Assembly: GCA_964016885.1 (NCBI GenBank)
Contig: OZ024742.1
Coordinates: 24,676,001-24,740,000 of the forward strand
Length of the DNA stretch: 64,000 nt
Source of the DNA: Eledone cirrhosa
Taxonomy: Eukaryota
Direction: 5' to 3'
A program made the translations under genes and the position numbers. Each line of letters begins with the position of its first letter. The first letter of the stretch is position 1. A model generated the notes under the pieces. The model was not told the DNA's origin. It ran no database searches and saw only the letters and a program-made list of their open reading frames with translations. This document shows, piece after piece, positions 3,884 through 7,316 of this stretch.

Positions 3884-4027
3884 ATATATATATATATATA
3901 TATATATATATATATATATATATATATATGTATATACATGAAAAGTTATATTTAAAATTGTTGGGTTACAACTAGTAAATATTTATAACTGATATAAAAG
4001 CACTCGACAAATATTTGGAGTATATTT

Positions 4028-5280
4028 ACAATATTAAATAAATGGAAACTATATTTATAAAACCATATTTATTTCATTATATATATTTCAGGGATATCAT
4101 ATTAACAATATGCTATGCCTTCCTCAGACAAAATACAATATAAACAGTTTTATAGATAAATAGATTCGACATACCGTAATAACATCGACTTGCATTTGAA
4201 GAGGTTGATATGGCAGTGAAAAAATTGTACACAGAGAGAAAGAAAGAGAGAAAAAAGAAAGAAAGACAGAAAACGAAGAAAAGGAAGAAAAAGAAGAAAT
4301 GCATGGAACAAAATAGAGAGATGGAAAGATAGATAAAGAGAAGAACTTCATGTAAAGAAACAGAAAGAGATATATATATATATAGAGAGAGGAAATAGAG
4401 ATAGATACATATATATATAGAAAATTAGGTAGTGGGAGGTCTGTTGAGTAAATGTATCAATGATACATTTATTTATTTATTTATTTAGCTCTAGTATTAA
4501 TGTAAGGGAGATATATATAGAGAGAAAAAAATATAGAGAGAGAAAAAATATAGCAAGAGAAAAAATTTAAAAATAACCAGATATATGCGAGGCGCAAAAA
4601 CCCTATGTTTTAATGTAGAGGTATTAGTATTTATAAAACATCCACTATATTGTAAATATCAGTATTCCTGAATGAGACAAGTATCCATAGTGTGTGAAAA
4701 TTAATGAACTTATGTTTAGTTTTTTAAAAAAATTCACATGTTTATGTAATAGCTACAAACATCCATGTGAATCTACATGATCAATTCTGCAAAGCCTAAG
4801 TTCACGGAAAACATTCTCAATGTGGTATAAAAATTTGAGTATACATATATGAGTATTATTATTCCTGTCTTTACTCTACAAGATTATCTATCAAGCAGAA
4901 ATAGAGAGCAGATTTCAATATACTAATAAAAATATATATCAGAAACAAAACTAAAAAATAACAATAATAATAATAAGTAATAATAAAATAGAAAACTAAA
5001 AAAATATTACGAAAGAATATTACATATTAAAAATATTACGTATTAAAAAATTTACTTATTAAAAATATTAAAAATAAAAATATTAGAAAATACTACAATA
5101 ATAAAAAAAAATAATATTAGAAAATACTACAATAATAAAAAAAATTAAAATAAACCACAAAGATCAACCCTTCAAAATTAATTGACAATATATTGCCAAG
5201 TTCATTATAAGCATCAGAGTCGAAAAACAGACAAAGCCAAAAATTATCTATCAAATCACATCTAGCAAAGATCATTTCAA
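4028..5280 (-). repeat. Left arm of a ~1.25-kb inverted repeat (inverted pLTR)
   Basis: Reverse complement of 6066-7316 with only a handful of substitutions seen by eye; mirrored ORFs 4124-4351(-) and 6993-7178(+) give the same peptide. Confidence 0.97.
4070..4135 (-). ncRNA. Type I minimal hammerhead ribozyme (intact core)
   Basis: Minus strand: UAUUUUGU-CUGAGGA-AGGCAUAGCAUAUUGUUAAUAUGAUAUCCCU-GAAA-UAUAUA-UA-AUGAAAUA. Has CUGANGA and GAAA cores; stem II closed by AGG/CCU with an inner CAUAUU/AAUAUG hairpin; palindromic stem III; 8-bp stem I with 2 G-U pairs. Confidence 0.8.
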
Positions 5281-5830
5281 TAGACATACAATAAAATTAA
5301 CCTACTCATCCACCAAAAATTTAGCACAAAATATTAATAGAATAAATAATAGGAACTTAAAACCTAGTGATAATAGCATAAATAATATACAAGTTAACAA
5401 ATGTAACTGTAGAGATAGATCTAAATGTCCGTTAAATAACAACTGCTTAGTTAAAAATATAGTATACAATTGTAATGTTAATACTGACTCTAATTCTTTT
5501 AACTACGTCGGTTCCACATCGACGGAATTTAAACTTCGCTATAATAACCACAAGAATTCTTTCACAGATCCAAGCAAAAAATCCTCAACGGCACTATCAG
5601 GCGTACTCTGGCAACTTAAGCTAGATAACGTTAGATATTCGACGGCTTGGAATATAGTCTCAAGAGGGATTCCTTTTAATTCATCCTCTGAGACATGTGA
5701 CCTCTGCGCAGAGGAGATATTCTTTATACTAAAATCTAAAAATTCCCTTAATCTACGGACAAATTTATTCAGTTGTTGCAAACATAGATTAAACTCAACG
5801 TTTAAATATAAATTTAAATTTAAAATGTAG
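5276..5830 (+). pseudogene. PLE C-terminal linker plus GIY-YIG endonuclease (open frame, no start codon, 5'-truncated)
   Basis: Manual translation: FNRHTIKLTYSSTKNL...KCNCRDRSKCPLNNNCLVKNIVYNCNV...FNYVGSTSTEFKLRYNNHKNSF...TALSGVLWQLK...AWNIV...CDLCAEEIFFILKSKNSLNLRTNLFSCCKHR...KFKM* (TAG ends at 5830). IVY/YVG dyad plus the conserved R, H, E and N positions of PLE GIY-YIG domains. Confidence 0.9.
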
Positions 5831-6065
5831 TATATTTAGTTTGATTTATATTTATATGGGAAACTAGCCGATAAATCTTTGATTCCTTCTTTTTATTCTT
5901 TTTTATTTTTTATTTTAATTTTATTTTTATTTAATCATTCCTCATGAAAAATTAAGCTACCCTAAAAGCTGATGCTCCAAATATTTCGAATAAACGTTAC
6001 ACTAGATAAACTTCTATATTAAATATAAGAACACATGTAGACCAAATTTGGGCATCCTAAACTTT

Positions 6066-7316
6066 TTGAAATGATCTTTGCTAGATGTGATTTGATAGAT
6101 AATTTTTGGCTTTGTCTGTTTTTCGACTCTGATGCTTATAATGAACTTGGCAATATATTGTCAATTAATTTTGAAGGGTTGATCTTTGTGGTTTATTTTA
6201 ATTTTTTTATTATTGTAGTATTTTCTAATATTATTTTTTTTATTATTGTAGTATTTTCTAATATTTTTATTTTTAATATTTTTAATATGTAAATTTTTTA
6301 ATATGTAATATTTTTAATATGTAATATTCTTTCGTAATATTATTTTAGTTTTCTATTTTATTATTACTTATTATTATTATTGTTATTTTTTAGTTTTGTT
6401 TCTGATATATATTTTTATTAGTATATTGAAATCTGCTCTCTATTTCTGCTTGATAGATAATCTTGTAGAGTAAAGACAGGAATAATAATACTCATATATG
6501 TATACTCAAATTTTTATACCACATTGAGAATGTTTTCCGTGAACTTAGGCTTTGCAGAATTGATCATGTAGATTCACATGGATGTTTGTAGCTATTACAT
6601 AAACATGTGAATTTTTTTAAAAAACTAAACATAAGTTCATTAATTTTCACACACTATGGATACTTGTCTCATTCAGGAATACTGATATTTACAATATAGT
6701 GGATGTTTTATAAATACTAATACCTCTACATTAAAACATAGGGTTTTTGCGCCTCGCATATATCTGGTTATTTTTAAATTTTTTCTCTCGCTATATTTTT
6801 TCTCTCTCTATATTTTTTTCTCTCTATATATATCTCCCTTACATTAATACTAGAGCTAAATAAATAAATAAATAAATGTATCATTGATACATTTACTCAA
6901 CAGACCTCCCACTACCTAATTTTCTATATATATATGTATCTATCTCTATTTCCTCTCTCTCTATATATATATATCTCTTTCTGTTTCTTTACATGAAGTT
7001 CTTCTCTTTATCTATCTTTCCATCTCTCTATTTTGTTCCATGCATTTCTTCTTTTTCTTCCTTTTCTTCGTTTTCTGTCTTTCTTTCTTTTTTCTCTCTT
7101 TCTTTCTCTCTGTGTACAATTTTTTCACTGCCATATCAACCTCTTCAAATGCAAGTCGATGTTATTACGGTATGTTGAATCTATTTATCTATAAAACTGT
7201 TTATATTGTATTTTGTCTGAGCAAGGCATAGCATATTGTTAATATGATATCCCTGAAATATATATAATGAAATAAATATGGTTTTATAAATATAGTTTCC
7301 ATTTATTTAATATTGT
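6066..7316 (+). repeat. Right arm of the inverted repeat (PLE 3' UTR/pLTR)
   Basis: Reverse complement of 4028-5280; ends at the (TA)n tract. Confidence 0.97.
7209..7274 (+). ncRNA. Type I hammerhead copy with a core mutation (CUGAGCA), probably inactive
   Basis: Same fold as 4070-4135, but the core reads CTGAGCA (7217-7223) instead of CTGAGGA. Confidence 0.75.

Follow-up and report, generated by a model that had tools for sequence, protein, structure and literature searches.

Penelope-like elements (PLEs) that encode an endonuclease (EN+ PLEs) commonly carry tandem and inverted copies of a pseudo-long terminal repeat (pLTR) and a tail at one end (PMC8557442, Fig. 2; PMC3846280). How these structures are built, and how microsatellites are targeted, is described as an open problem (PMC8557442). 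One clade, Hydra, is distinguished by RWK and DKT motifs, a CxCX5C linker, an endonuclease (EN) that lacks CCHH and has CxxC and CxH, hammerheads, and insertion at (TA)n (Craig et al. 2021, PMC8557442). With purified protein of a Poseidon element from Anolis (PAc), both strands are cleaved and extended, and reverse transcription begins at two positions within the RNA that correspond to the tail (Frangieh et al. 2024, PMC11167929). We have analyzed a stretch of 64,000 nucleotides from Eledone cirrhosa (GenBank assembly GCA_964016885.1, contig OZ024742.1, positions 24,676,001–24,740,000, forward strand; hereafter the window), in which positions 3938–7316 are a single insertion in a (TA)n tract. 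The element consists of the last 184 codons of an open reading frame (ORF) and the 3′ untranslated region (UTR), head-to-head with an inverted 3′ fragment. We consider it, with a probability of about 65%, to be a 5′-truncated Hydra-type PLE whose foldback arose from two reverse transcription events, one per nicked strand, begun at RNA sites 89 nt apart and joined head-to-head.

The family and its clade

The frame at 5276–5830 encodes 184 amino acids followed by a stop codon, contains the motifs CNCR..CPL, IVY, YVG, CDLC..E, and CKH, and has its sole methionine as the last residue. The original prediction described this frame as part of a 5′-truncated PLE, and translation and genome searches bear this out. 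The frame is the end of a 737-codon ORF with YRDD and C-terminal IVY/YVG—that is, a reverse transcriptase (RT) and a GIY-YIG endonuclease in a single ORF. Full-length, RT-bearing relatives, for which a genome search had been suggested, do exist. One of these (L026) is composed of (TA)n, an inverted truncated arm, a tandem truncated pLTR, the ORF, the UTR, and (TA)n. The family has the tandem and inverted pLTRs and the one-sided tail of PLEs. The L026 unit is 3,858 bp in length, with a 47-nt 5′ UTR, 737 codons, and a 3′ UTR of 1,597 nt; a long, AT-rich 3′ UTR had been anticipated from the window. Because the window copy has neither a start codon nor an RT, it is unable to move by its own protein.

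In the 3.0-Gb assembly, an exact 21-mer from the endonuclease region is present 1,061 times. All 150 scored matches to the frame, drawn from 65,466 first-look candidates and including the window itself, are 99–100% identical and stop-free, in agreement with the youth proposed earlier for the family. Of 19 ATG-anchored ORFs at fetched loci, 11 read 737–740 codons; the loci were picked for long frames and do not give a genome-wide rate. Across eight ORFs of 737 codons, pS is 0.056 and pN is 0.009 (pN/pS 0.15). The family is a young, high-copy Penelope-like retrotransposon with intact RT-plus-endonuclease copies. Its protein aligns end to end with 11 homologues (32–40%), and among 14 homologues one is assigned to Argonauta. 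In the Atlas, the frame adjoins GIY-YIG clusters (0.96; PF01541 on 23% of members) and RVT_1/GIY-YIG clusters.

Motifs and the rows of a published alignment place the family in the Hydra clade of EN+ PLEs. The N-terminus, SLKDIP, matches the Hydra-type loss of the conserved GxKF/Y, and the DKT motif is SDKTNNLY, as in Hydra-1_Obim. At the RWK site the family has RWR, while RWK occurs in eight of the ten aligned homologues that span it. The linker, CNCRDRSKC, fits CxCX5C instead of the CX2-5CxxC found in Neptune, Nematis, and Naiad (PMC8557442). CCHH is absent, with one unconserved cysteine between IVY and YVG, and CDLC..E, N, and CKH are present. The family reads across to the Hydra rows, and not the canonical rows, of Fig. 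S7 in PMC8557442. Penelope/Poseidon, Neptune, and Nematis, which the original prediction had named as the clades for comparison, were rejected along with Naiad, as the family lacks their CCHH with two cysteines between GIY and YIG; in Naiad the endonuclease is, moreover, N-terminal (PMC8557442).

The family shares with the Hydra clade, including Hydra-1_Obim and Penelope-13_HM, the single RT and GIY-YIG ORF, YRDD, a hammerhead near the 3′ end, and the (TA)n target; Penelope-13_HM is itself listed with a 5′-truncated inverted copy at its 5′ end (PMC8557442). It departs from the clade in length: the 1.6-kb 3′ UTR brings the unit to 3,858 bp, whereas all 27 listed Hydra families are shorter than 3 kb (longest complete, 2,729 bp), a length that is a tendency and not a criterion for the clade. 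Hydra-1_Obim (2,507 bp) differs visibly in protein sequence as well as in length. Set beside the listed families, this one has thousands of young copies, and its stem III/cleavage triplet is AUA as compared with GU(A/U/C) in their motifs. An initiator (Inr)-like TCACT in the pLTR and the absence of a readable target-site duplication in a microsatellite are common to EN+ PLEs in general. The tail of ~89 nt is longer than the 30–40 bp reported for these elements, and inverted or tailed layouts that the papers call "often" or "optional" are close to a rule here, as shown below. The Hydra clade and the inverted copies and one-sided tails of PLEs are thus already in print; new here are the family, the 1.6-kb Hydra UTR, the longer tail, and the strict pairing of ends. 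None of the family, such a UTR, a ~89-nt tail, or a counted pairing of ends was found in the parts of the literature covered, including passages of a 2026 retrozyme preprint; Repbase, Dfam, and subscription journals were outside this scope and may catalogue the family.

A run of C residues occurs just upstream of the endonuclease, near codons 527–539 (e.g., L026:5418–5424), in copies other than that of the window. It varies from 5 to 20 nt; the in-frame length of 7 nt is found in 29 of 54 rows, a sample enriched by the choice of loci. About one-third of the 150 frame matches (50 by hand count) are open over merely 219–226 amino acids, and 18 of 20 such frames fetched start just upstream of the run. 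The run is either a recurrent frameshift hot spot separating EN from RT or a homopolymer assembly error.

Two termini and two arms

Copies of the family end at two discrete sites, unit position 3769 (the short end, at 7316 in the window) and 3858 (the long end, at 3938), and in tandem copies the sequence continues past the long site to the 5′ UTR. In the window, the left end reaches ~89 nt further out than the point at which the right end stops. The original prediction had put the left limit at 3940 and overlooked this one-sided tail. Exact genome counts are 4,294 for short ends and 4,818 for long ends (the latter pattern including a four-T variant), with controls at 0. The fold of the tail barely surpasses those of shuffled sequences (z = −0.9 to −1.6).

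The two types of end occur together. The first 98 Mb of C1 contain 95 short and 100 long ends, which form 43 outward-facing pairs no more than 8 kb apart, and all 43 pairs consist of one long and one short end (p = 2e-13 vs 50%). Of the 109 unpaired ends, 40 were fetched (the first 20 of each type) and classed by reading. For 28 of these an opposite-type partner had been overlooked by the pattern (two of the ends belonging to one interrupted insertion), 7 are single-armed, 2 have a 6–9-nt remnant of the short end, 2 have a short inverted internal piece, and 1 is unresolved. Two-armed copies make up ~78% of insertions, which makes the foldback the norm of the family. Loci selected by protein also have a long and a short end in 27 of the 28 cases with both ends in view. 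As had been suggested from the TA repeats on both flanks of the window insertion, which the sequence confirms, the family targets (TA)n: 67 of 70 termini at the protein-selected loci are followed by (TA)n (at least five TA in 14 nt). The remaining three comprise two imperfect TA tracts and one end of a sister family. Such targeting, along with the clustering of copies (several unrelated hammerhead families lie in the fetched loci), would allow two independent, opposite insertions into the same (TA)n tract, or later recombination between copies, to yield a foldback. This is very improbable, because such events do not account for the long-plus-short rule, for the absence of (TA)n at the window junction, or for lineage-specific variants common to both arms.

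The arms of the window insertion were located in the original prediction at 4028–5280 and 6066–7316 around a spacer of 785 bp, and alignment of the arms agrees. They differ by seven substitutions and two 1-nt indels, and are 99.3% identical to each other and at most 97.9% identical to other copies, so that each is the nearest relative of the other. For five of the seven substitutions, one allele is missing from 80 other loci, and such private alleles occur on both arms; because of this, the arms appear to have decayed since insertion and not to be the mirror of a read. From the 0.56% divergence, the insertion would be roughly 0.8 My old, if the calibration of JC 0.09 = 25 My quoted in PMC13282606 applies and conversion between arms is ignored. 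A palindrome might also be an artefact of assembly or of chimeric reads. Over 5170–5900, contigs and restriction-site-associated DNA (RAD) reads from 4 of 24 runs gave variants of the family, among which none listed crosses the junction, and they decide neither way. Larger mirror structures do exist in the assembly: the one exception to end pairing among the protein-selected loci (L037, G000:C4:268669000–268678999) has two long ends within mirror-identical 1-kb flanks, a larger palindrome, due either to segmental duplication in inverted orientation or to misassembly. For the window, an artefact is hardly credible given the nine differences between the arms, the private alleles, two unrelated flanks, a family tail that distinguishes the ends, and the recurrence of the architecture in most copies.

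Long inverted arms around a coding spacer are likewise what a foldback DNA transposon with terminal inverted repeats and a captured nuclease gene would have. We give this next to no credence, since the arm consists of 3′ UTR from a unit that encodes an RT, and the outer ends are fixed while arm lengths and junctions vary from copy to copy, as 5′ truncation during reverse transcription produces; at other loci, copies with an identical junction number none among 40 mapped pairs.

The reach of the arms bears on how they were templated. Both arms were mapped in 40 of the 43 C1 pairs and classed by reading. The arm with the greater 5′ reach is that of the short end in 18 pairs and that of the long end in 12; in 8 pairs the arms are equal to within 13 nt, and the remaining 2 are unclear. 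The window insertion resembles the first group, its untailed arm reaching unit position 1706 and its tailed arm 2513. That either arm may extend further 5′ is an argument for priming having occurred twice, separately, on RNA. As for kinship, the partner arm is the best match in 16 of 26 pairs, ties in 3, and is best in all five pairs that share at least 1,200 nt. Together with the 99.3% identity of the window arms, this places both arms in one source lineage.

Close kinship of the arms is also expected from a single target-primed reverse transcription, followed by snap-back of the cDNA or an RT switch onto its own product, or by antisense self-priming, with the endonuclease trimming the hairpin at the short site to leave a one-sided tail. 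Precedents have been proposed for its parts—self-priming in PMC3846280 and endonuclease-mediated resolution of the tail in PMC8557442—and near-perfect hairpin centers are seen in L117, L128, L135, L137, and L147. A copy cannot exceed its template, however, and the untailed arm outreaches the tailed one in the 18 pairs above and in the window. Both arms were probably templated by RNA, because a copy of the tailed cDNA would be no longer than that cDNA, and one made from the untailed cDNA would have no source for the tail. We therefore regard a single priming event as unlikely.

In the two-event scheme that we favor, the GIY-YIG domain would nick both strands within (TA)n, and the long site would serve for priming from one strand, the short site for priming from the other. 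Probably the two reactions would share one RNA as template, the first RT being displaced by the second, or else use sister transcripts from a single source copy. Synthesis of both cDNAs would stop early, here after 1,343 and 2,042 nt, and their 3′ ends would then be joined, here over 6 nt of homology. RT would never have been copied into the window insertion, in place of the replacement of RT by an inverted UTR that the original prediction envisaged; the inverted arm would be a second cDNA of the 3′ end, a normal product of the family. L1 twin priming is similar in that each of the two target strands serves as a primer on RNA, followed by head-to-head joining of the products, often by microhomology. 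In L1, the inverted part is an upstream continuation that barely overlaps the other, whereas in this family the arms cover one and the same 3′ region, overlapping by 1.25 kb, and start from two fixed sites. PAc resembles this family in its two internal RT start sites, use of both strands, AT-rich target, and upstream hammerhead (PMC11167929). The clades differ, and the start sites of PAc lie inside the ORF as compared with 136 and 47 nt upstream of the ATG here.

Microhomology at the junction had also been predicted, as TTCAA; an overlap does fit the window junction, but it is TTTCAA, 6 nt rather than 5. In a simulated single blunt join, the probability of an overlap of at least 6 nt is 0.003. 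We rejected microhomology as a rule of the family, as clean junctions mostly have 0–4 nt of overlap or short insertions; the family-wide junction scan was too noisy for counts, owing to subfamily divergence and a palindrome internal to the UTR. Of 80 arm 5′ ends, 14 fall at unit positions 3566–3605, a region that surrounds the Inr-like TCACT and lies ~80 nt upstream of the hammerhead core. It may be a transcript start.

Several observations weigh against two priming events on a Hydra-type PLE. Single-armed insertions amount to about one-fifth. In seven pairs, all sharing less than 900 nt, another copy is a better match than the partner arm. Five of the eight equal-ended pairs (about 5–6 of 40) are near-perfect hairpins with loops of 1–9 nt, which fit the self-priming proposed by Arkhipova et al. 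(2013) or a pair of RTs that both run to the end of a single RNA. In the PAc assay, both strands shared start sites with no strand preference (PMC11167929), while the genomic products of this family imply one site per end. Lastly, Pfam has no RT or GIY-YIG match for the window frame or the full-length protein, so that the profile search by which the original prediction was to be checked is negative on the frame, though the element is real. Pfam matches GIY-YIG in one of 12 aligned members (E = 0.0023); NCBIfam did not find GIY-YIG in the window frame, and a PDB sequence search gave nothing useful. As Pfam misses the whole protein, ~4,000–5,000 such insertions will go unclassified in annotation pipelines or be misread as miniature inverted-repeat transposable elements or foldback DNA transposons.

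A broader proposal, which we offer tentatively and at somewhat less than even odds, is that the foldback would be the primary product of the Hydra clade: one RT-endonuclease complex would always prime the two strands at the long site and, 89 nt upstream, the short site of the same RNA, each insertion would start out as two cDNAs, and single-armed copies would be those in which one arm failed. The window copy alone is ordinary family debris. The family, by comparison, has intact ORFs and thousands of recent insertions whose ends follow a nearly strict rule, and through these formation from two cDNAs, if true, would be directly testable.

Hammerhead motifs and related families

Each arm contains one type I hammerhead motif on the sense strand of the element. 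The original prediction had hammerheads capping the foldback; the motifs are present in both arms but lie inside its ends. The left one has a CUGAGGA...GAAA core, a palindromic stem III, an AUA cleavage triplet, and a stem I rich in G-U. The right one carries a G8C change, unnoticed earlier; this substitution abolishes cleavage in a Poseidon hammerhead (PMC11167929). A scan of 3900–7400 found no further CUGANGA-like core, and Rfam did not detect a hammerhead at the locus. The window motif folds no better than shuffled sequences (z = +0.84), and when the frame is tightened, the hammerhead structure lies 3.9 kcal/mol above the minimum. Across 247 rows of the motif (both arms included, with a tolerance of two core mismatches), C3–A6, G8, A9, and G12–A14 match in at least 245, and N7 is free (G154/T50/A42/C1). 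With a fixed core and a free N7, these are real motifs and predicted, weakly folding ribozymes, which fit the dimer-type hammerheads of Cervera and De la Pena 2014 (PMC4209133).

A sister family is short (~285 nt) and has a strong hammerhead (L026:8560–8850 and L101–L112, the latter being the best matches to one copy). Its hammerhead has the same layout, but stem II is different and perfect (z = −3.8). The sister family has the same two ends ~88 nt apart and shows no excess folding of the tail (z = +0.6). Its 5′ start is near-fixed, ~75 nt upstream of the core in 12 of 12 fetched loci. It looks like a non-autonomous derivative resembling a short interspersed element (SINE). At these loci, the palindromic stem III of a further hammerhead family is also different. 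The fetched (TA)-rich loci (e.g., L032, L034, L036, L045, L047, L076, and L089) contain at least six additional hammerhead families, one of which forms a 310-nt, retrozyme-like tandem array at L032.

Layout of the locus

Table 1. Parts of the insertion and its target tract, in window coordinates.
Feature	Position	Strand	Basis or remark
(TA)n target tract, left flank	3882–3937	.	sequence
Inverted arm, copy of the 3′ UTR, long (tailed) terminus outward	3938–5280	−	unit positions 2513–3858
Tail of ~89 nt, left end only	3938–4027	−	in tandem copies continues into the 47-nt 5′ UTR, then ATG
Type I hammerhead motif, core intact, weak fold	4070–4135	−	motif scan
Head-to-head junction, 6-nt overlap TTTCAA common to both arms	5275–5280	.	
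ORF codons, last 184 of 737; CxCX5C linker and Hydra-type GIY-YIG endonuclease	5276–5830	+	no start codon, no RT
3′ UTR/pLTR to the short (untailed) terminus of the family	5831–7316	+	6066–7316 pairs with 4028–5280
Second hammerhead motif, core G8 to C at 7222	7209–7274	+	
(TA)n target tract, right flank	7317–7566	.	sequence

Outside the two (TA)n tracts are related SINE-like repeats, at 3600–3880 and 7567–7900; the right-hand repeat matches a tRNA weakly at 7576–7633 (26.4 bits, below the gathering score). Reverse transcriptase fragments of long interspersed elements, with YADD motifs, are found at 2350–3507 and 25671–26979, and we take these to be RTE-like. A 65-bp satellite of 312 copies, with 95% matches, spans 41067–61361.

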